From sequence record ON528737: a DNA stretch of 64,000 nucleotides; one strand, 5' to 3'. The translations under genes were made by a program, and so were the position numbers. Shown in pieces: positions 3,653-28,525 of this stretch; position 1 is the first letter of the stretch, and the number at the start of each line of letters is the position of its first letter. The notes under the pieces were generated by a model that saw nothing but the letters and a program-made list of their open reading frames with translations, had not been told where the DNA came from and ran no database searches. This stretch comes from Shigella phage ESh27.

Positions 3653-4570
3653 ATGGATTTAGAAATGATGTTGGATGAGGATTACAAAGAAGGTATTGCA
3701 CTTGCAGACTTTAGTAACATTGCATTAGCAGCTGCATTAAACAACTTTGAAGACGGTGATAAAATTACTGTTCCGATGGTTCGCCATGTAATCTTGAATT
3801 CAATTCGTAAAAACGTAGTGATGTTCCGTAAGCAAGGTTATACAAAATTTGTATTGTGCATGGATAACGCTACTTCCGGGTATTGGCGACGCGACTTTGC
3901 TTACTATTACAAGAAAAATCGTAAAACTGATCGTGAAGCTTCAAAGTGGGATTGGGAAGGATATTTTACTGCACTCCATCAAGTCGTTGATGAGATTAAG
4001 AAATATATGCCATACGTTGTAATGGATATTGACAAATACGAAGCGGATGACCATATCGGTGTATTAACTAAATATTTGTCATTAGCTGGTCATAAGGTGT
4101 GTATTGTTGCATCAGATGGTGACTTTACACAATTACACAAATACCCTAACGTTAAACAGTGGTCGCCACCGCAGAAAAAATGGGTTAAAATTAAGAATGG
4201 TTCTGCCGAAATTGATTGCATGACTAAAATTCTTAAAGGCGACCGTAAAGATGGTGTTGCGTCTGTTCGAGTTCGTGGTGATTTCTGGTTTACTCGAGTT
4301 GAAGGCGAACGAACTCCGAGTATGAAAACAACGATTATTGAAGCAATTGCTAATGACCGTTCTCAAGCTGAAGTATTATTAAGTGCAGAAGAATATAAAC
4401 GGTATCAAGAAAATTTGGTTCTCATTGATTTTGATTATATCCCTGATAATATTGCTTCAACCATTATAGAGTATTATAACTCATATAAACAACAACCTAA
4501 AGGCAAGATTTATTCATACTTTGTAAAATCCGGCCTTTCTAAATTAACAAGTGTAATTAACGAATTCTGA
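3653..4570 (+). CDS. rnh: RNase H (5'-3' exonuclease / flap endonuclease)
   Basis: 305 aa; MDLEMMLDEDYKEG N-terminus as in T4 RNase H; SD aagagg; divergent from gene 34 as in T4. Confidence 0.93.
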   Translation: MDLEMMLDEDYKEGIALADFSNIALAAALNNFEDGDKITVPMVRHVILNSIRKNVVMFRKQGYTKFVLCMDNATSGYWRRDFAYYYKKNRKTDREASKWDWEGYFTALHQVVDEIKKYMPYVVMDIDKYEADDHIGVLTKYLSLAGHKVCIVASDGDFTQLHKYPNVKQWSPPQKKWVKIKNGSAEIDCMTKILKGDRKDGVASVRVRGDFWFTRVEGERTPSMKTTIIEAIANDRSQAEVLLSAEEYKRYQENLVLIDFDYIPDNIASTIIEYYNSYKQQPKGKIYSYFVKSGLSKLTSVINEF

Positions 4571-4847: not shown

Positions 4848-5163
4848 TATTAAACCGGTTGATGAGGCCGGTTTATCTGAACAAGAGTTAGCAGTAAAAC
4901 ACGATAAAGATGATATCGCTAAATTGCTTGACCGTCAAGAAAACGGATTCATTATCGAATCCATGGTTGAACAATTTGGTATGTCTTATTTAGAAGCAAC
5001 AACTGCTTTCTTGGAAGAAAATTCTATTCCAGAAACACAATTTGCTAAATTTATTCCTACAGGAATTGTTGAAAAAATTACAAGTGAAGCAATTGACGAA
5101 AACATGCTTCGCCCATCAGTTGCTCGTGGTGAAAAAACTAATACGTTAGATTTCTTATTATGA
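4825..5163 (+). CDS. 33: Late transcription co-activator gp33
   Basis: 112 aa (T4 gp33 is 112 aa); synteny. Confidence 0.88.
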   Translation: MTQFSLSDIKPVDEAGLSEQELAVKHDKDDIAKLLDRQENGFIIESMVEQFGMSYLEATTAFLEENSIPETQFAKFIPTGIVEKITSEAIDENMLRPSVARGEKTNTLDFLL

Positions 5164-5813
5164 TTAAAATACGCATGCCTCCTGATGGAGAACGTTATAT
5201 TAATGGAAAATCGGTATACAAACTATACTTGATGTGCAAACAACATTTTAATGGTCGGTATGACGTAATCAAATATAACTGGTGCATGCGTGTTTCGGAT
5301 AATGCGTATCAAAAACGCCGAGATAAATATTTCTTTGAGAAACTAGCAGAGAAATATAAGTTAAAGGAACTCACTTTGATATTCATCAGTAACTTAGTTG
5401 CTAACCAAGATGCATGGATTGGTGAGATATCAGACGCTGATGCATTAGTTTTCTATAGGGAATATATTGGACGTCTCAAACAGGCCAAGGAGACATTTGC
5501 TGAAGATGTACGTAACATCTACTATTTCAGTAAGAAAGTGGAAGTTAGTGCGCTTCAAGAGATATTTGATTATAATAATAAAGTTCAGTCGAGCTACATA
5601 TTTAAATTGCTACAAAGCAATATAATTTCGTTTGAAACCTTCTTGTTGTTGGATTCATTCTTGAATATTATAGATAAGCATGACGAACTTACTGACAATT
5701 TAGTCTGGCAAAATTATTCTACCAAATTAAAGGCATATCGAAAAATACTTCAAATCGATGGAAATGCTGCTAAGAAATTGTTCATAGAAACAATCAAATC
5801 ATGTAAGTATTAA
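5160..5813 (+). CDS. 59: gp59 helicase (gp41) loader
   Basis: 217 aa, matches T4 gp59 length and sequence; ATGA overlap with gene 33. Confidence 0.9.
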   Translation: MIKIRMPPDGERYINGKSVYKLYLMCKQHFNGRYDVIKYNWCMRVSDNAYQKRRDKYFFEKLAEKYKLKELTLIFISNLVANQDAWIGEISDADALVFYREYIGRLKQAKETFAEDVRNIYYFSKKVEVSALQEIFDYNNKVQSSYIFKLLQSNIISFETFLLLDSFLNIIDKHDELTDNLVWQNYSTKLKAYRKILQIDGNAAKKLFIETIKSCKY

Positions 5814-20063: not shown

Positions 20064-20360
20064 ATGATTTTAACTGAACAAGAAACTGTGGTTCTTCGTG
20101 AACGTATTAAAACTATTCTGTCTGTAGGCGTTCATTGTGTTGTATTTGAAAAGGCTAACGGTGATGTTCGTACGATGTTTGCTTCGCGCGACGAACTTGA
20201 AGTCAAATACGAAAATAACAATCCGGCAACAGAAGTTCGTTATGAACCTCGTGAATCAGTTCGAGCATTCGATACCAAGTTAGGTCAGTGGCGTTCTTTC
20301 CGCCTTGATAAAGTAATTTCGGTTGATGGTACTCCGGTGGAACGTTTGCTTCTTATGTAA
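20064..20360 (+). CDS. Hypothetical protein (31.x position)
   Basis: ATG at 20064 immediately after cd stop; ~98 aa. Confidence 0.5.
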   Translation: MILTEQETVVLRERIKTILSVGVHCVVFEKANGDVRTMFASRDELEVKYENNNPATEVRYEPRESVRAFDTKLGQWRSFRLDKVISVDGTPVERLLLM

Positions 20361-20387
20361 TATGCTTTACGAATAGTATGGTATTAT
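20360..20387 (+). promoter_or_regulatory. Putative MotA-dependent middle promoter upstream of gene 31
   Basis: MotA-box-like aTGCTTtA at ~20363-20370, -10-like tattat ~20 nt downstream. Confidence 0.45.
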
Positions 20388-20417
20388 TAATCTATCGTCA
20401 AACAACAAGGAAATAAG

Positions 20418-20750
20418 ATGTCTGAAGTACAACTCCCAATTCGTGCTGTTGGTGAATATGTCATTCTGGTTTCTGAACCCGCTCAAGCAGGTGATGAAGA
20501 AGTTACCGAATCAGGACTTGTGATTGGTAAACGTGTTCAAGGTGAAGTTCCTGAACTATGTGTAGTTCATTCTGTAGGTCCTGATGTTCCTGAAGGTTTT
20601 GTTGAAGTCGGTGATTTGACTCCACTACCAGTTGGACAAATTCGAAATGTTCCACATCCATTTGTGGCTTTAGGTCTTAAACAACCTAAAGAAATTAAAC
20701 AGAAATTCGTAACATGCCACTATAAAGCTATTCCGTGTCTTTATAAGTGA
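20418..20750 (+). CDS. 31: Co-chaperonin gp31 (GroES analogue for capsid protein folding)
   Basis: 110 aa; [35 protein letters not shown]-terminal [15 protein letters not shown] as in T4 gp31. Confidence 0.92.
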
Positions 20751-20758
20751 TATAAATA
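20751..20758 (+). promoter_or_regulatory. T4-type late promoter (TATAAATA) upstream of rIII
   Basis: tataaata directly after gene 31 stop, followed by hairpin gaagag-aaca-ctcttc at 20766-20781. Confidence 0.5.
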
Positions 20759-20874
20759 ACTATATGAAGAGAACACTCTTCTAAGCGGTAGCCTACAACT
20801 GAGAGACTTGTCGAAAGAAGGTGAAATTCAGACGAACGTGGCTACTAAATATTATCTCGAATTGAGAATTTAAA

Positions 20875-21123
20875 ATGATTAAACAATTACAACACGCTCT
20901 TGAACTGCAACGCAACGCATGGAATAATGGCCACGAAAACTACGGCGCGTCAATTGATGTTGAAGCCGAAGCACTGGAAATCCTGCGATATTTCAAACAT
21001 CTGAATCCAGCACAGGCCGATCTTCGTGATATCCTGGCTCAGAAAGATGAATTGAAATATGCTAAGCCTCTGGCTTCAGCAGCTCGTAAAGCAGTTCGTC
21101 ATTTTGTTATTACCCTGAAGTAA
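20875..21123 (+). CDS. rIII: rIII lysis-inhibition accessory protein
   Basis: 82 aa; MIKQLQHALELQRNAWNNGHENYGASIDVEAEALEILRYFKHLNP as in T4 rIII. Confidence 0.88.
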   Translation: MIKQLQHALELQRNAWNNGHENYGASIDVEAEALEILRYFKHLNPAQADLRDILAQKDELKYAKPLASAARKAVRHFVITLK

Positions 21124-21493
21124 GTTAAATCGAGGAGCCGTCGAATTGTCTGATTATCGATTTGCGAATCGGTATGTTTTAGAAGTACCGCCCCGACAAT
21201 TTTACGGTGTACCTCTTGAATGTTGTTCTTATAACGGTAAGTGCATGCTACCCCGAGGTGATGGCTAATCGGGAGTACGCCTCAAGGCCTATATATCCAT
21301 CAGTATATATCTTATCCTCGAGAAATCGAACCCGGAACCTTTAAGCTAACGGTGTGCAACAGATAAGAGTTATAAGGTATGATGACGGGTTTATGGTTAT
21401 CCTGTCGTTAAATATCCAAAACCTATGTTCCCCTTGAGGGCTTGAGCAGGCAATGTCAATAAGTCCTGCATTTTCATTTAAAGAGAATTTATA

Positions 21494-21670
21494 ATGGCAA
21501 AACAAACTAAAGCAAAGAAAGCAGTTGAAAAGAAAGTCGGTGATTCTAAACGCGCTGGATACAAGCGTGGGTCGAACTCTCGTATTAATCAAACAGTTGA
21601 GAAGATCATGCGCAGAGCACGTGCAGTTCTTCGAGATGATGCTTCTCGTTTTGGAAAGGTTGTTGCATAA
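21494..21670 (+). CDS. Small lysine-rich hypothetical protein (58 aa, below the ORF-track cutoff)
   Basis: ATG at 21494 with upstream aaagag; MAKQTKAKKAVEKKVGDSKRAGYKRGS...; followed directly by strong terminator. Confidence 0.4.
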   Translation: MAKQTKAKKAVEKKVGDSKRAGYKRGSNSRINQTVEKIMRRARAVLRDDASRFGKVVA

Positions 21671-21675
21671 TTTTA

Positions 21676-21699
21676 GGGAGACTTCGGTCTCCCTTTTGT
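21676..21699 (+). terminator. Intrinsic terminator (GGGAGACTTCGGTCTCCC + TTTT), identical hairpin to the gene 32 terminator
   Basis: 18-nt hairpin with UUCG loop followed by T-run. Confidence 0.8.
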
Positions 21700-21729
21700 G
21701 TGTTTAGGGCAGAAAAAGTTTAAAAAGAT

Positions 21730-21758
21730 GTTTACTCTCCTGTAGGATGTGTTACTAT
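21730..21758 (+). promoter_or_regulatory. T4-type early promoter (GTTTAC ... GTGTTACTATAGAC)
   Basis: gtttac 21730-21735; tactat 21753-21758. Confidence 0.6.
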
Positions 21759-21800
21759 AGACTTGTACCACCTAATCAATAAAACAAACTGGAGAATAAA

Positions 21801-22169
21801 ATGAAAATCAATCTGAACTCATACATCGAATGTAAAGACCACGACGGTTATAAAGCTATCGAAATTAAAGAATTCCAGTGGATGTTATACAAAGAGCAAT
21901 TTGAGATCGTAGGTTGTATGACCCCTGAAGGTCCTTCAAATGATTTCTCTTGGAAAATTGTGTTAGCAAACTTTTTCACAGGTGACACATACGAATTAAA
22001 AACTATTATTACCGGTAAAATTCGTTCAGAAACATATGTTGACGAAGAAACTGGTTACTCTGAAGATGTTACATGGTATCAAAATGGACGCATTACAGCA
22101 GATAACCTTATCGAAAAAATGAAAGCCAAAGGTGTTTTAAATTTAGACAATTGGATTAAAGTTGCATAA
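21801..22169 (+). CDS. Hypothetical early protein (30.x region)
   Basis: 122 aa; SD ggagaataaaatg; own promoter. Confidence 0.5.
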   Translation: MKINLNSYIECKDHDGYKAIEIKEFQWMLYKEQFEIVGCMTPEGPSNDFSWKIVLANFFTGDTYELKTIITGKIRSETYVDEETGYSEDVTWYQNGRITADNLIEKMKAKGVLNLDNWIKVA

Positions 22170-22173
22170 AACA

Positions 22174-22202
22174 GTTTACTTTGGTACAGGTTATGTTATT
22201 AT
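22174..22202 (+). promoter_or_regulatory. T4-type early promoter (GTTTAC ... TATTATAGAC)
   Basis: gtttac 22174-22179; tattat 22197-22202. Confidence 0.6.
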
Positions 22203-22243
22203 AGACCTGTACCAACAAACAACTTAAACATCCGGAGAATAAA

Positions 22244-22609
22244 ATGAACTACATCAACTTCGAACGTAAATATGTTTCTAACGGTATCGCTGGTTCTTCT
22301 GAAGTTATTTGCTTATGGAAACACAAAAACGGTACAGTTTGTGAAATCGAACAGTGCATGACTCCTAATTACGTTTATATGCGATTTGAAAATGGCATCA
22401 CGGTTTCAATCACGATGGAAGGTTCTACTTTTAAAATCGCTTTAGATGATGATTTCCGTCAACGTGATTTAGGTACTCATCCTTGCTGGAATGGTGTTAA
22501 TCGTAAACTTCTGGTTAAAACTTGGATTCGTCATATCCTGAGTAACCGAGCTAAACCTGAACATCTCGAAGCAATCTTTGATGTAGTTCTTAATGAATTC
22601 GATATCTAA
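22244..22609 (+). CDS. Hypothetical early protein (30.x region)
   Basis: 121 aa; SD ggagaataaaatg identical to the upstream gene. Confidence 0.5.
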   Translation: MNYINFERKYVSNGIAGSSEVICLWKHKNGTVCEIEQCMTPNYVYMRFENGITVSITMEGSTFKIALDDDFRQRDLGTHPCWNGVNRKLLVKTWIRHILSNRAKPEHLEAIFDVVLNEFDI

Positions 22610-22615
22610 TTTAAC

Positions 22616-22633
22616 TGGGAGCTTCGGCTCCCA
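22616..22633 (+). terminator. Hairpin TGGGAGCTTCGGCTCCCA (UUCG loop); weak or no T-tract
   Basis: Perfect 7-bp stem; followed by attgagg then ATG at 22649. Confidence 0.35.
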
Positions 22634-22648
22634 ATTGAGGAAAATATT

Positions 22649-22936
22649 ATGTTTATGACCACTTATTTTGATACCCGCAAAAACTTTTGTGAAGTTGTTT
22701 TCTCTAAAGCACCTAAAGACCTTCCGGCCCATTTGCAACCTACTAGCGAGTCAATTAAACACTATGTCAACGTAGTATGTCCTTTGGAGTTTCGTACAGT
22801 AAATGGGCATGATACTTTAGCTATCACTAAACTTAATCGTGAAATTGACATCGATCCTTCGATCGCAAGTGAAATTAACATTTCTGATATTGGCGGCGGT
22901 AATGTTAAATCACATGGCTTTCAGATGAGGTTCTAA
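22649..22936 (+). CDS. Hypothetical protein (30.x region)
   Basis: 95 aa ORF. Confidence 0.45.
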   Translation: MFMTTYFDTRKNFCEVVFSKAPKDLPAHLQPTSESIKHYVNVVCPLEFRTVNGHDTLAITKLNREIDIDPSIASEINISDIGGGNVKSHGFQMRF

Positions 22937-22940
22937 TAAA

Positions 22941-23159
22941 ATGCTTAAAAAATTAATCAAGAAATTGTTTGGTACGGAAATGATTGAAGTTACTTATCGT
23001 GTAACAGACGTTTTTCCATATTATGCAGAAAACCGTTTAGAACCATACGTTACGTCAATTAAAATGCCTAAAAATGACGGAAATTTATCTATCGAAGACC
23101 GTATACCTGGTTATGGTCATTGGGCTGATGTTGAAATTATAAGTGTTAAAGATGTCTGA
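22941..23159 (+). CDS. Hypothetical protein (30.x region)
   Basis: 72 aa ORF. Confidence 0.45.
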   Translation: MLKKLIKKLFGTEMIEVTYRVTDVFPYYAENRLEPYVTSIKMPKNDGNLSIEDRIPGYGHWADVEIISVKDV

Positions 23160-23610
23160 ATTAGAAATAAGAAGTAATTTCAAATGGCCGTCATGTGCAT
23201 TAAGTAATTTCGCCCAATGGCCTTTTGTCATGGATGGTATTCAATTCGGAGGTCTTGAAGGATTTCTCCAAGGATGTAAGGTGAAAAATGTTGAACATCA
23301 AAGACGTATATTTGGGTTGTCTGGATTGGCTGCACAGCAAGCTGGAAGGTCTTATGCAAGAGCTCAGGGCCATGGGACTCTCTTCTGGTTAGGAGTTCCA
23401 TTTTCAAGATACTCTGAAGCGTGGAAAGAATTATACACAAATGCATATTTTGAAGCAGCGATCCAAAACAAGGGGTTTCGCGATGCCTTACAAGCCTCTA
23501 AAGGAAAAATTTTGAAGCATAGCATGGCCAGCCACCTAACAAAAGATGATACAATACTAACTGAAGCTGAATTTATTGATGTGTTAAACCTATTAAGAGA
23601 CTCTTTATGA
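23152..23610 (+). CDS. NADAR / YbiA-like (DUF1768) domain protein
   Basis: ATG at 23152 overlapping upstream stop; LSNFAQWPFVMDGIQFGGLEGFLQGCK resembles the YbiA/NADAR core (FSNFAAWP..DG..W.TSEHYFQAQKF). Confidence 0.55.
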   Translation: MSELEIRSNFKWPSCALSNFAQWPFVMDGIQFGGLEGFLQGCKVKNVEHQRRIFGLSGLAAQQAGRSYARAQGHGTLFWLGVPFSRYSEAWKELYTNAYFEAAIQNKGFRDALQASKGKILKHSMASHLTKDDTILTEAEFIDVLNLLRDSL

Positions 23611-24425
23611 AGCCTACTATTTTGACTGATATTGATGGTGTATGTTTAAGCTGGCAATCTGGACTTCCTTATTTTGCCCAAAAATATAATCTTCCATTAG
23701 AACATATTTTAAAAATGATTCAGGACGAAAAATTTATTTCTCCTGGTAAACTATTCAATACCGACGATAACCTCGGTAAACAATTAATAGAAAAATATAA
23801 TCGCTCTGATTTTATTCGTTACTTAGCGCCTTATTCGGATGCTCTTCGAGTTATCAATAAACTAAAAGAAGACTATAATTTTGTAGCCGTAACGGCGTTA
23901 GGTGATTCAATTGATGCTCGATTGAATAGACAATTTAATTTGAATGCTTTGTTCCCAGGCGCTTTCTCTGAAGTAATGATGTGTGGTCATGATTCTTCAA
24001 AGGAACAATTATTCGAACTAGCTAAAACAAAATATAACGTAATTTGTTACGTTGACGATTTAGCTCATCATTGTGACCATGCGGCAGAAATTCTTAATGT
24101 ACCGATTTATTGGTTGGCCCGTGGTGAACGTGATGATATTCCTCGTACTGCACAACGTGTACACACGTGGGATGATATTGAATCTCGTTTGGTTCCACCC
24201 GAGCATAATTCAGATTCAGATCGTGAAGACCTTTTAAAACGATTGGCGGATTTGCTTAAAGAATCTGGTGCAACAAGTCCAGGTGCATGGCCTAATCAAA
24301 TTGGTGGCCCCTCGACAACACGTACTCCATATACCTGGCGAACCCCAGGACCAACCGATATGCAGCCATGGTGGACGATTCAAAACTTTCCTTTAGATTC
24401 GTCTAAATGGACTATAAATTGTTAA
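23607..24425 (+). CDS. HAD-superfamily hydrolase-like protein (possible nucleotidase/phosphatase) with unusual Pro/Thr/Trp-rich C-terminal tail
   Basis: 272 aa; N-terminal HAD motif I ILTDIDGV, downstream YVDD; ATGA-coupled to the NADAR gene. Confidence 0.5.
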   Translation: MKPTILTDIDGVCLSWQSGLPYFAQKYNLPLEHILKMIQDEKFISPGKLFNTDDNLGKQLIEKYNRSDFIRYLAPYSDALRVINKLKEDYNFVAVTALGDSIDARLNRQFNLNALFPGAFSEVMMCGHDSSKEQLFELAKTKYNVICYVDDLAHHCDHAAEILNVPIYWLARGERDDIPRTAQRVHTWDDIESRLVPPEHNSDSDREDLLKRLADLLKESGATSPGAWPNQIGGPSTTRTPYTWRTPGPTDMQPWWTIQNFPLDSSKWTINC

Positions 24426-24434
24426 GGGTTAATT

Positions 24435-24704
24435 ATGTTTGTAGTTCATGATATTACAGATGGCAAAAATACCACACGTGACTACGGTCACGTTAACATG
24501 TTCTTTCGAGACTGGCCGTTGTTTCGTTCAGTAAAAGACGCAGAAATATTTAAAGAGTGTGTTGAACAAGGGTTCATCTACATTTCAGAATATTATGTTG
24601 AAGGACTCGGTAAACGGGTTACCACTTATCAGAAAACGCTGAAATCGCTTCTAGATGAAGTGGCTTATAATAGAACCGTAACCAAAATCGAGGATATCAA
24701 ATGA
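24435..24704 (+). CDS. Hypothetical protein (30.1 position)
   Basis: 89 aa ORF. Confidence 0.5.
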   Translation: MFVVHDITDGKNTTRDYGHVNMFFRDWPLFRSVKDAEIFKECVEQGFIYISEYYVEGLGKRVTTYQKTLKSLLDEVAYNRTVTKIEDIK

Positions 24705-26194
24705 TTTTAGATATTTTAAACCAAATAGCTGCGATCGGTTCTACTAAAACAAAACAGGAAATCCTTAAGAAAAATAAGGACAACAAATTACTTGAACGTG
24801 TGTATCGTTTAACATATGCACGTGGTATCCAGTATTATATTAAGAAATGGCCAGGACCAGGTGAAAGGTCCCAAGCATATGGTCTTCTTGAATTAGATGA
24901 CATGTTGGATTTTATTGAGTTCACATTAGCCACTCGTAAACTCACTGGTAATGCTGCAATTAAAGAGCTCATGGGTTATATCGCTGATGGTAAACCTGAT
25001 GATGTAGAAGTCCTTCGTCGTGTAATGATGCGCGACCTTGAAGTAGGTGCTTCAGTGTCTATCGCGAATAAGGTGTGGCCTGGTCTTATTCAATTGCAAC
25101 CACAGATGTTAGCATCTGCATATGATGAGAAATTGATTACTAAAAATATTAAATGGCCCGCATTTGCCCAATTAAAAGCAGATGGTGCTCGTTGTTTCGC
25201 TGAAGTTCGCGATGATGGTGTTCAATTCTTTTCTCGCGCCGGTAACGAATACCATGGTCTTACCCTATTAGCAGATGAACTAATGGAAATGACTAAAGAA
25301 GCTCGTGAAAGACACCCTAATGGGGTTTTAATTGATGGTGAATTAGTTTATCATTCATTTGATATTAAAAAGGCTGTGAGCTCAGGAAATGACCTGTCGT
25401 TCTTATTTGGCGATAATGAAGAATCCGAAGAAGTACAAGTTGCAGACCGTAGCACTTCAAACGGTTTAGCAAATAAATCTCTTCAAGGGACTATTTCTCC
25501 TAAAGAAGCTGAAGGTATGGTTCTTCAAGCCTGGGACTATGTTCCTTTAGATGAAGTCTATTCTGATGGCAAAATTAAAGGTCAGAAATACGATGTTCGT
25601 TTTGCTGCTCTTGAAAATATGGCTGAAGGCTTTAAACGAATTGAGCCAATTGAAAATCAGTTAGTTCGTAATCTTGACGAAGCTAAAGTGGTTTATAAAA
25701 AATATGTTGACCAAGGTCTTGAAGGTATTATCCTTAAAAACCGTGATTCATATTGGGAAAACAAACGCTCTAAGAACCTAATTAAATTTAAAGAAGTTAT
25801 TGATATCGCTTTAGAAGTTGTAGGATACTATGAACACTCTAAAGACCCTAACAAATTGGGTGGTGTCGAACTCGTATCACGTTGTCGTCGTATTACAACT
25901 GATTGTGGTTCAGGTTTTAAAGATACAACTCATAAAACAGTTGACGGTGTAAAGGTTCTTATTCCTTTAGACGAGCGTCATGATTTAGACCGTGAACGAT
26001 TAATGACCGAAGCTCGTGAAGGTAAATTGATCGGACGTATCGCTGATTGCGAATGTAATGGTTGGGTTCATTCTAAAGGCCGTGAAGGTACTGTAGGTAT
26101 TTTCCTTCCAATTATTAAAGGGTTCCGTTTTGATAAAACAGAAGCGGATTCATTTGAAGACGTATTTGGACCGTGGTCCCAGACAGGTTTATAA
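24701..26194 (+). CDS. 30: ATP-dependent DNA ligase
   Basis: 497 aa; adenylation motif KADGAR, EGIILK, C-terminal FEDVFG; matches T4 DNA ligase. Confidence 0.95.
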   Translation: MILDILNQIAAIGSTKTKQEILKKNKDNKLLERVYRLTYARGIQYYIKKWPGPGERSQAYGLLELDDMLDFIEFTLATRKLTGNAAIKELMGYIADGKPDDVEVLRRVMMRDLEVGASVSIANKVWPGLIQLQPQMLASAYDEKLITKNIKWPAFAQLKADGARCFAEVRDDGVQFFSRAGNEYHGLTLLADELMEMTKEARERHPNGVLIDGELVYHSFDIKKAVSSGNDLSFLFGDNEESEEVQVADRSTSNGLANKSLQGTISPKEAEGMVLQAWDYVPLDEVYSDGKIKGQKYDVRFAALENMAEGFKRIEPIENQLVRNLDEAKVVYKKYVDQGLEGIILKNRDSYWENKRSKNLIKFKEVIDIALEVVGYYEHSKDPNKLGGVELVSRCRRITTDCGSGFKDTTHKTVDGVKVLIPLDERHDLDRERLMTEAREGKLIGRIADCECNGWVHSKGREGTVGIFLPIIKGFRFDKTEADSFEDVFGPWSQTGL

Positions 26195-26382
26195 TGAAAG
26201 CTTATTTAGAAACAGTTATTGTAGCTAAGAAGGATGGTGGAGATGTTTCCACCTCTTGCTCTCAGATTATATTAGATTTTCCTAATGAAAATTCGTATCG
26301 GGTTTTTGTAGATAACGTTAATGGGTACGAAAAAGGCCCTAATTTTGAAGTTTATCGTACTTTGCTCCCGATTGTGGATTAA
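26194..26382 (+). CDS. Hypothetical protein (alt.1 position)
   Basis: ATG overlapping ligase stop (TAATG); ~62 aa. Confidence 0.45.
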   Translation: MKAYLETVIVAKKDGGDVSTSCSQIILDFPNENSYRVFVDNVNGYEKGPNFEVYRTLLPIVD

Positions 26383-26401
26383 GAGCCTTCGGGCTCTTTT
26401 T
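26382..26401 (+). terminator. Intrinsic terminator (GAGCCTTCGGGCTC + TTTTT)
   Basis: UUCG-loop hairpin followed by T5. Confidence 0.75.
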
Positions 26402-26437
26402 GGCATAAATATAAATTATTACTAAAAGGAAAACACT

Positions 26438-28525
26438 ATGTCTGAACAATTAAATGAAGTGTTTGAATCTGAAGGCAGTCTTCCTGTCGTCAATTTGAAC
26501 CCTAAAGCTAAAGTTCCACAAGTCTGGAAAATTGGTGATATCGATACAAATATTGTAGTTCGTTTATTCTCTTACCTTTCTGAAGGCGATGCTGTAAAAC
26601 AAGTTAAACTTGGTGACAAATACGCTCATGTCGTTATTATGAGTCTGTCTGAAAAGGGTAATCTCGCTGAATTGAAAAATGGCCTTGGTCCTGCTCCTAT
26701 TGATGCAATCAACACCATTTTCAATACAGTGTATGAACAGGTTAAAGCTCTTCGTATGGATGCAGTTCTGTTTCGATTCCCTACCAAGAAATTGAAAGGA
26801 CGTGGACAGCAGCTTCAAACTCTTCTTGCTCGTTTAGTTTCTACTAAAACCGGTGGTCGTTTTAAAGTATTGTCTGCAATGTATCAATTCACAGGTAAAC
26901 ACACATATGTGATGATGGTTCGTAAAAATGCCAACATTGAAGATATTAAAGGCATCCCTAACATTAACACAGAGTTGTACACGAAAGTAGATTCTGATGT
27001 TGGCGAAGTTTATGTGAGTAAAAAGACCGGCGAAAAAGTCACCAAAGAAACGGCTATCGCTGGTTCTATTGCTGCTGTAGAAGAAAAACGTAAAGATAAG
27101 CCTGTTATTGCTCGTACTAAAATTTCTCGTCGTGCTATTGCAGCAAGCCAATCTTTAGAAGCAGATCGCCAAGAAGGTGAGCTATTCCAGAAATACGAAA
27201 ATTCTGCTAAAGAAGTTAGTGGCCCAGCTACAGCCGAATTACTTCCTGAAGCATATGAAATCGTACTAGCCCAAGCATCGTCCACAGCAAAAGGCACTTT
27301 AGTTGCTGATATCGAAAATAAGATTTATAATCGTATTGATGAATCCTTTAGATTTGCTGATGAAGTTTCTTATGGTAGTGTTATTAAGCCGACTTTAGAA
27401 AAGTTTGCTAAGAAAATTAAAACCGAAAAAACAACATCTGTTAAAGCATTAGCTGCTTTTGTTGAAGCTGCAAATGAAATTGCAGACTCTATTAAAGACG
27501 AATGGTTTGAAGATTTTAGACGAGATAATTTCCAACTGGCTGACGACGTTTTAGCTGAAGTATCTGAAAAAACTTGGAAACAACGTAAATCAGCGTTCTT
27601 GTCTAATGTGATGTATACTTATGCACGAGAATCGGCCAGAGGCACCTTTAATATAACAATGAATCGGGACCCTAAACAATACTCTGTTGCTGAAAAACGA
27701 GCTATTCGTGAATATGCCTCTTCTGCGTATACCGATATCAATAATATGTTGTTAGGTCGTTATAAACCGGATTTTTATGATGTTGCAGATGAAGATGAAG
27801 TTAAACGCGCTATTGATGGTCTTGATTCGGCGTTTTTAAATGGAGACCGTTTACCTGAAGGACTAACGTTATATAGAGCCCAGTCTATCAGAATGCCTAT
27901 TTACGAAGCAATGGTTAAAAATAAGGTATTCTACTTCAGAAACTATGTTTCTACTTCATTAGCTCCTATTATTTTCGGCGGGTTTAAAGAGAACGTTGCC
28001 CTTGGACTTGCTCCTGAAGAAGTTCGCAAAGAGCTTAACATTGACAATAATGACGAAGGTGTTACTATTTCTCCTAGTCAAGTAAGAACAGCTATGCATG
28101 CACCAGAACAAATCCGTGTTAACGTTGGATGGGCTATTGATGGCGCTCATAAAGTTAACGTGATTTACCCAGGACAGTTGAGTAATCACCCTAATGAGCA
28201 AGAAATTATTTTGCCTAGAGGCATTCTCTTGCAGATAAATAAAATTACAGATGCGTCATCTGATACCGGTGCAGGTTTAGAATCAAACCTTAAATTTATT
28301 CAAGCTGAAGTTATGTCCTCAGACCAGTTGGATGAAGCTGTCATTTACGATGGTGATGTTCTCATGGAAACAGGCGAGGTGGTTGCTATGACGGGTGAAA
28401 TCGAATCAGATGAGCCGGTATCTTTTGCCTCATTCGTAGAAATAAACAGTGCACCTAAAGGATTGAAACTGTTAGCATCTTTAATGGATTTGGAATCGGT
28501 TCCATTTAAATTTGTTCAAGGATAG
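26438..28525 (+). CDS. alt: Alt mono-ADP-ribosyltransferase (packaged; modifies host RNA polymerase)
   Basis: 695 aa (T4 Alt ~682 aa); C-terminal ART motifs R (LYRAQS), STS (YVSTSLAP), Q/ExE (NEQEIILPRG); position between gene 30 and gene 54. Confidence 0.85.
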   Translation: MSEQLNEVFESEGSLPVVNLNPKAKVPQVWKIGDIDTNIVVRLFSYLSEGDAVKQVKLGDKYAHVVIMSLSEKGNLAELKNGLGPAPIDAINTIFNTVYEQVKALRMDAVLFRFPTKKLKGRGQQLQTLLARLVSTKTGGRFKVLSAMYQFTGKHTYVMMVRKNANIEDIKGIPNINTELYTKVDSDVGEVYVSKKTGEKVTKETAIAGSIAAVEEKRKDKPVIARTKISRRAIAASQSLEADRQEGELFQKYENSAKEVSGPATAELLPEAYEIVLAQASSTAKGTLVADIENKIYNRIDESFRFADEVSYGSVIKPTLEKFAKKIKTEKTTSVKALAAFVEAANEIADSIKDEWFEDFRRDNFQLADDVLAEVSEKTWKQRKSAFLSNVMYTYARESARGTFNITMNRDPKQYSVAEKRAIREYASSAYTDINNMLLGRYKPDFYDVADEDEVKRAIDGLDSAFLNGDRLPEGLTLYRAQSIRMPIYEAMVKNKVFYFRNYVSTSLAPIIFGGFKENVALGLAPEEVRKELNIDNNDEGVTISPSQVRTAMHAPEQIRVNVGWAIDGAHKVNVIYPGQLSNHPNEQEIILPRGILLQINKITDASSDTGAGLESNLKFIQAEVMSSDQLDEAVIYDGDVLMETGEVVAMTGEIESDEPVSFASFVEINSAPKGLKLLASLMDLESVPFKFVQG

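Follow-up and report, generated by a model that had tools for sequence, protein, structure and literature searches.

An intact orthologue of the T4 anti-DarT gene adfN, encoding a predicted NADAR-superfamily DNA ADP-ribosylglycohydrolase, in an RB69-like Shigella phage

RESULTS AND DISCUSSION

Gene order at the adfN locus

The DNA analyzed here, referred to as the window, is a 64,000-nucleotide stretch from Shigella phage ESh27 (sequence record ON528737). The source phage belongs to the RB69 group of T-even phages. Over the 1.85-kb stretch around adfN and gene 30.2, its DNA is 97.4% identical to that of phiC120 and 95.9% identical to that of RB69. The order of the ORFs in the window is the same as in T4 and RB69: cd, 31.1, 31, rIII, 30.9 to 30.1, 30 (ligase), alt.1, and alt. 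The features of the locus are compiled in Table 1.

Two ORFs are at the center of this analysis, adfN, which is the orthologue of T4 gene 30.3, and gene 30.2. The TGA stop codon of adfN sits within the ATGA that opens gene 30.2, and the last 8 nt of gene 30.4 are shared with the start of adfN. A preliminary description of the window had already reported the stop/start overlap between adfN and an ORF carrying the motifs ILTDIDGV and YVDD, as well as an Alt ADP-ribosyltransferase a few kilobases downstream. Both observations were confirmed. The alt gene starts about 2 kb past the end of gene 30.2 and about 2.8 kb from adfN.

Both ORFs are real genes and not chance reading frames, as evidenced by their family matches and the number of their relatives. 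The adfN product, gp30.3, matches PF08010 (Phage_30_3) over profile positions 1 to 138 of 138 with an E value of 5e-68 (227.6 bits; cut-off, 36) and PHROG 652 with 1.7e-50, and gp30.2 matches PHROG 420 with 1.4e-78. Homologues were found in roughly 1,450 to 1,500 phage records each (1,510 for gp30.3 and 1,439 for gp30.2). The internal ORF 30.3', which is annotated in T4, was considered as a conserved feature and rejected; in the window it is interrupted by a stop codon. A promoter and terminator scan of positions 20300 to 26500 yielded counts equal to the shuffled expectation and thus permitted no regulatory inference.

Table 1. Features of the adfN locus, with positions in the window
Feature	Position	Strand	Description and basis
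Gene 30.4 (context)	22941..23159	+	72 aa; PHROG 2042, E=3.3e-35; RB69 and T4 annotation
adfN (T4 gene 30.3 orthologue)	23152..23610	+	152 aa; predicted stand-alone NADAR-superfamily DNA ADP-ribosylglycohydrolase, intact allele; PF08010, T4 identity, AlphaFold, Foldseek
Codons E36 to K43 (EGFLQGCK)	23257..23280	+	NADAR active-site residues: the catalytic Glu and the Lys that binds phosphate
Codon H123	23518..23520	+	Phage-type His in the last beta-strand, in place of the YbiA Glu or the BC4488/DarG1 Asp
Site of the extra T in RB69 (gene position 411; premature TGA)	23561..23562	+	No insertion in the window; pairwise DNA alignment, column 420
C-terminal helix, residues 138 to 152, EAEFIDVLNLLRDSL	23563..23607	+	Missing in RB69 AdfN; needed for full activity
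ATGA, overlap of adfN stop and 30.2 start	23607..23610	+	Sequence; same 4-nt overlap in T4
Gene 30.2	23607..24425	+	272 aa; predicted Mg-dependent phosphatase; C1-capped HAD-superfamily hydrolase core, followed by a variable C-terminal tail of low confidence
Gene 30.2, HAD core (residues 1 to 195)	about 23607-24191	+	
Gene 30, ATP-dependent DNA ligase (context)	24701..26194	+	PF01068, E=1.9e-26
alt, ADP-ribosyltransferase (context)	26438..28525	+	PF03496, E=6e-28; syntenic with RB69 and T4 alt

Assignment of gp30.3 to the NADAR superfamily

The adfN ORF includes the stretch LSNFAQWPFVMDGIQFGGLEGFLQGCK, and LSNFAQWPF...EGFLQGCK, which the preliminary description had quoted as a YbiA/NADAR core, is found in gp30.3. 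Plain HMM scans did not recover this relationship directly. The Pfam NADAR model PF08719 gave no match to gp30.3 at an E value of 1 or less, and no match was obtained in NCBIfam either. PF08010 and PF08719 were found together in one distant homologue (P0080) only. A search of the PDB with the single gp30.3 sequence returned YbiA with an E value of 0.98. When a profile of 48 gp30.3 homologues was used instead, YbiA was the sole PDB sequence-profile match, with an E value of 0.0039 and an alignment that spans the Glu/Lys motif.

The same 48-sequence alignment was used to generate an AlphaFold model of gp30.3, which reached a pLDDT of 92.8. The best three Foldseek matches to this model were all NADAR proteins: YbiA (2b3w), a Phytophthora NADAR in complex with ADP-ribose (8bau), and a DarG1-type NADAR from Geobacter (8bat). 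Their Foldseek probabilities ranged from 0.98 to 1.00, compared to 0.06 for the fourth match, and the match to 2b3w had an E value of 2.6e-5 and a TM score of 0.67.

Glu36 and Lys43, spaced as E-x6-K, are invariant among the 48 family members and are matched by the Glu and Lys of YbiA in the alignment. Their counterparts in the NADAR of Escherichia coli C7 are E88 and K95. Residue His123, likewise invariant in the family alignment, falls within strand 120-123 of the model. A His in the last strand is the published signature of phage gp30.3-type NADARs.

We conclude that gp30.3 is a NADAR-superfamily enzyme. This assignment draws on the family profile, the structure, the conserved residues E36, K43, and H123, and the literature, and not on a direct HMM match. 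The preliminary description had made the claim dependent on a NADAR-family match in an HMM search and on the conserved catalytic residues. The first was not obtained, and the HMM search instead identified gp30.3 through PF08010. The residues, however, are present after profile- and structure-guided comparison, and the NADAR claim therefore survives the missing match.

Function of the T4 orthologue and related NADAR proteins

The T4 counterpart of this protein has been characterized. In vitro, it hydrolyzes ADP-ribose attached to guanine in DNA but not ADP-ribose attached to thymidine (2024, PMC11125620), and it has been named AdfN, for anti-DarT factor NADAR (Johannesman et al., Nat Commun 2025, PMC11825919). 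According to the latter study, T4 and T2 lacking adfN form no plaques on DarTG1 hosts, and plaquing of RB69 is regained when adfN-T4 is supplied ectopically. Purified AdfN-T4 takes ADP-ribose off DarT1-modified DNA, in contrast to its E36A mutant, and activity is weakened by both E36A and K43A. AdfN neither binds DarT1 nor protects against DarTG2 (PMC11825919). In the independent HIDEN-SEQ transposon screen (bioRxiv 10.1101/2025.11.20.689424), insertions in T4 30.3 were lost on DarTG1; the entry for this gene in Data S6 is a log2FC of -7.25 with an adjusted p of 0. On E. coli K-12, adfN is dispensable without DarTG1 and essential only when DarTG1 is present.

For T4 gp30.3, published work thus establishes activity, necessity, sufficiency, and guanine specificity. 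The counter-defence role of gp30.3 is already published, and what the window contains is an orthologue of a characterized gene. The proposal in the preliminary description that a phage NADAR counters DarT-type defence is upheld by T4 genetics and biochemistry for guanine adducts (DarT1). It does not extend to the thymidine adducts of DarT2.

AdfN shares its fold, the catalytic pair of Glu and Lys, and the hydrolysis of guanine-N-ADP-ribose in DNA with the DarG1/BC4488-type antitoxins of DarTG1 systems (E. coli C7 and Geobacter lovleyi; 8bat). It differs from them in having no N-terminal extension, a His for the Asp in the last strand, and no adjoining DarT toxin. Uninfected cells expressing DarT1 are also not rescued by AdfN-T4, another difference from the DarG1/BC4488 type. 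No DarT1 gene lies beside adfN in the window: the adjoining genes are 30.4 and 30.2, and the nearest ADP-ribosyltransferase is Alt. The window adfN is therefore an orphan antitoxin-like gene, as published. Two other T-even anti-DarT factors take part in the same arms race, namely AdfA (gp61.2), which binds DarT1, and AdfM (Tk.4), a macrodomain protein directed against DarTG2. Their folds and mechanisms are unrelated to those of AdfN, and neither is encoded at this locus.

E. coli YbiA (2b3w) is the best structural match of AdfN, yet the two proteins are only 19% identical. The YbiA gene belongs to an operon under LexA control, and YbiA gives no protection from DarT1 in vivo (PMC11125620). With YbiA as the closest solved structure, gp30.3 might be thought to act on small molecules, such as N-glycosides of the riboflavin pathway or soluble immune signals derived from ADP-ribose, as YbiA-like proteins or as comparative genomics would suggest. 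We consider this highly improbable as an account of the gene. AdfN-T4 directly removes ADP-ribose from DNA, its phenotype is specific to DarTG1, and His123 occupies the position of the Glu that defines YbiA in the last strand. Turnover of small molecules is possible as an additional activity of AdfN.

The alt gene invites another reading, namely that the NADAR edits the marks that the phage's own Alt, ModA, and ModB place on host proteins or RNA and does not act against a host defence. The preliminary description had raised such editing of the phage's own modifications. Indeed, alt lies downstream in the same orientation, and a 2022 survey reported T4-like NADARs to be early genes that are expressed along with ADP-ribosyltransferases. 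However, on K-12 the phage needs adfN only in the presence of DarTG1, and insertions in alt, modA, and modB are neutral in the part of the HIDEN-SEQ DarTG1 data covered here. The substrate of the characterized NADARs is guanine-linked ADP-ribose in DNA, and in distant phages the NADAR gene is found far from alt. There is very little chance that this reading is correct. The proximity of alt is inherited synteny only.

The window allele compared with those of T4 and RB69

The gp30.3 encoded in the window is equal in length to T4 gp30.3 and 95% identical to it. The eight substitutions are all at non-invariant positions, and all 21 family-invariant residues are kept. E36, K43, H123, the C-terminal helix, the place between 30.4 and 30.2, and the 4- and 8-nt overlaps with the flanking genes are also common to both alleles. 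The two differ in their background, with the window phage being a Mosigvirus (RB69-like) and T4 a Tequatrovirus.

By genome background, the nearest relative is the allele of RB69. In that phage, a T inserted at position 411 of the gene causes an early stop, removing 15 residues, and RB69 is sensitive to DarTG1; AdfN-T4 cut at the same position has lower activity (PMC11825919). An alignment of the window with RB69 revealed the extra T at the published position. AdfN-RB69 is mostly identical to the window protein over residues 1 to 137, but it stops there, lacks the last helix, and is non-functional, whereas the window copy is intact. The C terminus of the window protein is identical to that of T4, and residues 138 to 151 form a helix in the model. 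A frameshifted 42-mer spanning the site occurred in two RB69 records only; the intact 41-mer occurred in 58 records.

Given how close the phage is to RB69 over this stretch of DNA, and that databases do contain truncated or fused gp30.3 variants, the window gene could be suspected of being a decayed, non-functional copy as well. We regard this as extremely improbable. The ORF is full length and free of the frameshift, the invariant residues and the C-terminal helix are all retained, and the intact form is common to the 58 records, so that the sequence already largely refutes decay. With the gene intact and the fold and conserved residues of its product in place, we infer that the window AdfN is functional and removes guanine-linked ADP-ribose from DNA. 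The phage should, therefore, resist DarTG1.

Gene 30.2 encodes a HAD-like protein

The preliminary description had called the second ORF a HAD-like hydrolase. Here too, curated HMM thresholds were not reached (HAD_2, 15.5 bits versus 23.8; TIGR01428, 12.7 bits versus 125.4), and a gp30.2 profile found nothing in the PDB under an E value of 0.2. The designation nonetheless proved right: gp30.2 adopts the Rossmannoid HAD fold, and the four HAD motifs (DxD, Thr/Ser, Lys, and DD) are conserved among 49 homologues. There is no variation at D8, D10, and K132, and T96 and D150/D151 are each retained in at least 90% of the sequences. The C-terminal portion of about 75 residues is variable and was modelled poorly.

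In HAD enzymes, the DxD form of motif I suggests transfer of a phosphoryl group and not dehalogenation, and a small-molecule substrate is suggested by a C1 cap. Because gp30.2 has both, it is most likely a small-molecule, possibly (deoxy)nucleotide, Mg-dependent phosphatase, with the substrate class deduced from these features. Its comparators are the 5'(3')-deoxyribonucleotidases cdN/mdN and the deoxyribonucleotidase-like protein 3bwv, which belong to the C1-capped HAD subfamily I. A literature search for "gp30.2" found no papers and no biochemical data.

The conserved neighbor of gp30.2 is DNA ligase. In 65 of 73 loci (89%), the ligase gene starts downstream of 30.2 at a distance of no more than 1.5 kb, and in about ten it abuts or overlaps 30.2.

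Is gene 30.2 a functional partner of adfN?

In the preliminary description, the two overlapping genes were viewed as a counter-defence or nucleotide-repair module. In a two-step unit of this kind, the HAD enzyme might act on the freed ADP-ribose or on an intermediate that bears a phosphate, or it might be the T-even factor on which full AdfN activity depends. The latter variant has a basis in the literature. AdfN-T4 does not rescue uninfected cells that express DarT1 and rescues non-T-even phages only partly, from which its authors suggest that an additional T-even protein is needed (PMC11825919). RB69, which fully supports ectopic AdfN-T4, has an intact 30.2. The 4-nt stop/start overlap is kept in T4, in relatives of RB69, and in the window, and the numbers of records given above for the two genes come from near-identical phage genera.

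The transposon data, however, argue strongly against a joint function. In the HIDEN-SEQ data covered here, T4 30.2 contains 71 insertion sites and has a log2FC of -0.12 on DarTG1 (adjusted p of 1), compared to -7.25 for 30.3. Insertions in this gene were neutral with respect to DarTG1, to DarTG2, and to the comparison of LB with M9, and the gene is non-essential on K-12. The overlap itself carries little weight. In the T4 block, roughly one in two pairs of adjoining genes, among them 30.4/30.3 and 30.1/30, overlaps by 1, 4, or 8 nt, and the ATGA is thus ordinary packing and not a specific sign of functional coupling.

Linkage between the two genes is also weak. Among the 79 viral loci that contain a gp30.3 homologue and enough flanking sequence, 30.2 lies directly downstream in 14, all but one from close T-evens. 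In another six it is located at a distance of 0.7 to 1.7 kb, and in 59 there is none within 5 kb. Conversely, a NADAR gene is directly upstream of gp30.2 in only 20 of 73 loci, far fewer than the 65 with the ligase. No HAD protein was present among 46 neighbors of uncoupled NADARs, in which no Pfam family appeared more than twice. ORFs abutting uncoupled NADARs on either side formed small lineage-specific clusters only, with no recurrent family, and a family-wide partner gene was not found among these neighbors. Roughly one in three of the uncoupled NADAR homologues is located within a cluster of phage tRNA genes.

Taken together, a functional NADAR-HAD unit is very improbable. Based on the T4 transposon data and the weak linkage, gp30.2 was rejected as the partner of AdfN, and the transposon data nearly exclude gene 30.2 as the factor that AdfN needs.

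The other gene overlapping adfN is 30.4, for which no Pfam match was obtained. Of 84 loci, 14 were found to have it upstream of adfN, exclusively in the close T-even clade that also has the AdfN-T4-type proteins. In the HIDEN-SEQ DarTG1 sheet, from gene 26 to its end (approximately 265 genes), 30.3 and 30.4 are the sole significant genes. Insertions in T4 30.4 had a log2FC of -1.79 with an adjusted p of 0.014 on DarTG1 and were neutral on DarTG2 and in M9 in the data covered. The simplest explanation for this depletion is a polar effect on adfN expression. If a clade-restricted gene overlapping adfN supplied the T-even factor for AdfN, 30.4 would be the remaining candidate. We judge this unlikely, if less so than a role for the HAD enzyme.

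Proposed role of adfN in infection of DarTG1 hosts

The explanation that we favor, and hold to be very probable as a whole, is that the intact adfN would defeat DarTG1 and that gene 30.2 is a separate gene. In an infected cell with a DarTG1 system, the toxin DarT1 would ADP-ribosylate guanines in the phage DNA and thereby block replication. AdfN, presumably produced from the early 30.x gene block, would act as a stand-alone N-glycosidase of the NADAR fold, in which Glu36, Lys43, and the phage-type His123 cleave the bond between ADP-ribose and guanine. The DNA would be returned to its unmodified state and replication could go on. In this way AdfN would mimic DarG1 in the role of an "orphan antitoxin," without binding the toxin. 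The window phage, unlike RB69, is predicted to resist DarTG1, and adfN should offer it no protection from the thymidine-specific DarTG2. Gene 30.2 would encode a separate HAD enzyme that travels with the ligase gene and is not needed for counter-defence by AdfN.

This gene is important as a case of a lytic phage with an orphan antitoxin-like enzyme for the repair of ADP-ribosylated DNA, which has been in print since 2024-2025. To the known role of adfN, the window adds an intact allele from the RB69 lineage and, as predicted from its sequence, resistance to DarTG1. It shows the ancestral, intact adfN in this lineage and supports the view that the sensitivity of RB69 is due to a frameshift confined to RB69 records.

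Genetic context of gene 30.4 and adfN

Disruption of the gene directly upstream of adfN also carries a cost on DarTG1-expressing hosts. Among the rows of the published T4 transposon screen HIDEN-SEQ (bioRxiv 10.1101/2025.11.20.689424) running from gene 26 to the end, approximately 265 genes, 30.4 was the only gene besides adfN that was significantly depleted on DarTG1 (log2FC -1.79, adjusted p 0.014). It was neutral on DarTG2 and in M9. Gene 30.4 (window 22941-23159) overlaps the start of adfN by 8 nt, and its depletion on DarTG1 is likely to be a polar effect. Alternatively, gp30.4 could be the T-even co-factor postulated for AdfN; the gene was detected in 14 of 84 loci, all of them within the close T-even clade.

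The arrangement of terminator-like sites was evaluated by scanning window 20300-26500, where their total number equaled the shuffled expectation. Downstream of the strong hairpin that follows gene 30.9, the only plus-strand site before alt is a weak one inside the ligase gene. Judged by this distribution, genes 30.8 through 30 may therefore be organized as a single transcription unit.

The T4 annotation also includes an internal gene, 30.3', encoding 75 aa in an alternative frame within 30.3. Since a stop codon breaks this frame in the window, 30.3' is unconserved even among T-even phages and is doubtful as a gene.

Linkage of gp30.2 to DNA ligase

Throughout the T4-like phages (loci L087-L164), the DNA ligase gene is tightly linked to that of the HAD-like gp30.2. 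The ligase start lies no more than 1.5 kb downstream of 30.2 in 65 of 73 loci, with the 30.2 stop abutting or overlapping it in about 10, and gp30.1 is located between the two in only 23 of the 73. This linkage may have a functional basis or be inherited synteny. At its C terminus, gp30.2 carries a tail that varies in length and sequence and was modeled with low confidence; a short motif within it, TWRTPG, is common to T4, RB69, and the window.

Variation in adfN and its placement in other phages

The extra T that causes the RB69 adfN frameshift is confined to the two RB69 database records, and 58 phage records carry intact sequence at this site. Databases also contain shortened gp30.3 proteins of 83 to 126 aa, phages SV76 and UGJNEcP4 being two sources, as well as apparent fusions that carry Pfam families of other small T4 genes (PF11097, PF06919, PF06019, and PF26911). 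In many Tequatrovirus copies, the match ends at residue 144 and the last 8 residues are divergent. The shortened, fused, and divergent-end forms may represent additional naturally occurring adfN alleles, either loss-of-function or variant.

Outside the close T-even phages, many gp30.3/AdfN homologues are housed in the tRNA gene cluster of the phage. Among the 60 gp30.3 loci without 30.2 nearby, 19 contain three or more tRNA genes, with a maximum of 22, and in 16 a tRNA gene is found within 500 bp of the NADAR gene. None of the 20 gp30.3 loci with 30.2 has a tRNA gene closer than 3.8 kb. The loci with this arrangement fall into 11 clusters when grouped at 90% identity and 3 when grouped at 70%; the arrangement also occurs in Ralstonia phage RSP15, assigned to the Ackermannviridae in its database record. 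Such placement could mark an accessory-gene hotspot or hint at an RNA-linked role.

Locations of the features considered in the window and in related viral loci (L), gp30.3 homologue proteins (P), and tblastn matches (H)
Feature	Location	Strand	Remarks
Terminator-like hairpin, strong	window 21675-21694	+	8-bp stem, 5 G-C pairs, T-rich tail; 3' of gene 30.9
Terminator-like site, weak	window 25314-25326	+	5-bp stem; within ligase gene
30.3' frame	window 23288-23515	+	frame offset from adfN
30.2/ligase pair	window 23607-24425 and 24701-26194		
30.2 stop abutting or overlapping ligase start	L115, L122, L123, L125, L126, L130, L141, L143, L154, L159		
gp30.2 C-terminal tail	window 24192-24422		residues ~196-272
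RB69 adfN frameshift site	window 23561/23562; L001 ~3660		
Shortened, apparently fused, or divergent-end gp30.3	P0004-P0006, P0010, P0013-P0017, P0048, P0102		also tblastn matches H24-H32
NADAR with tRNA cluster	~5001-5440 in most		L033, L037, L042, L054, L058, L063, L064, L072, L073, L075, L076, L082
NADAR with tRNA cluster	5001-5450		L085, Aeromonas phage 31
NADAR with tRNA cluster	4998-5441		L086, Erwinia phage Cronus
NADAR with tRNA cluster	3995-4513		L003, Ralstonia phage RSP15
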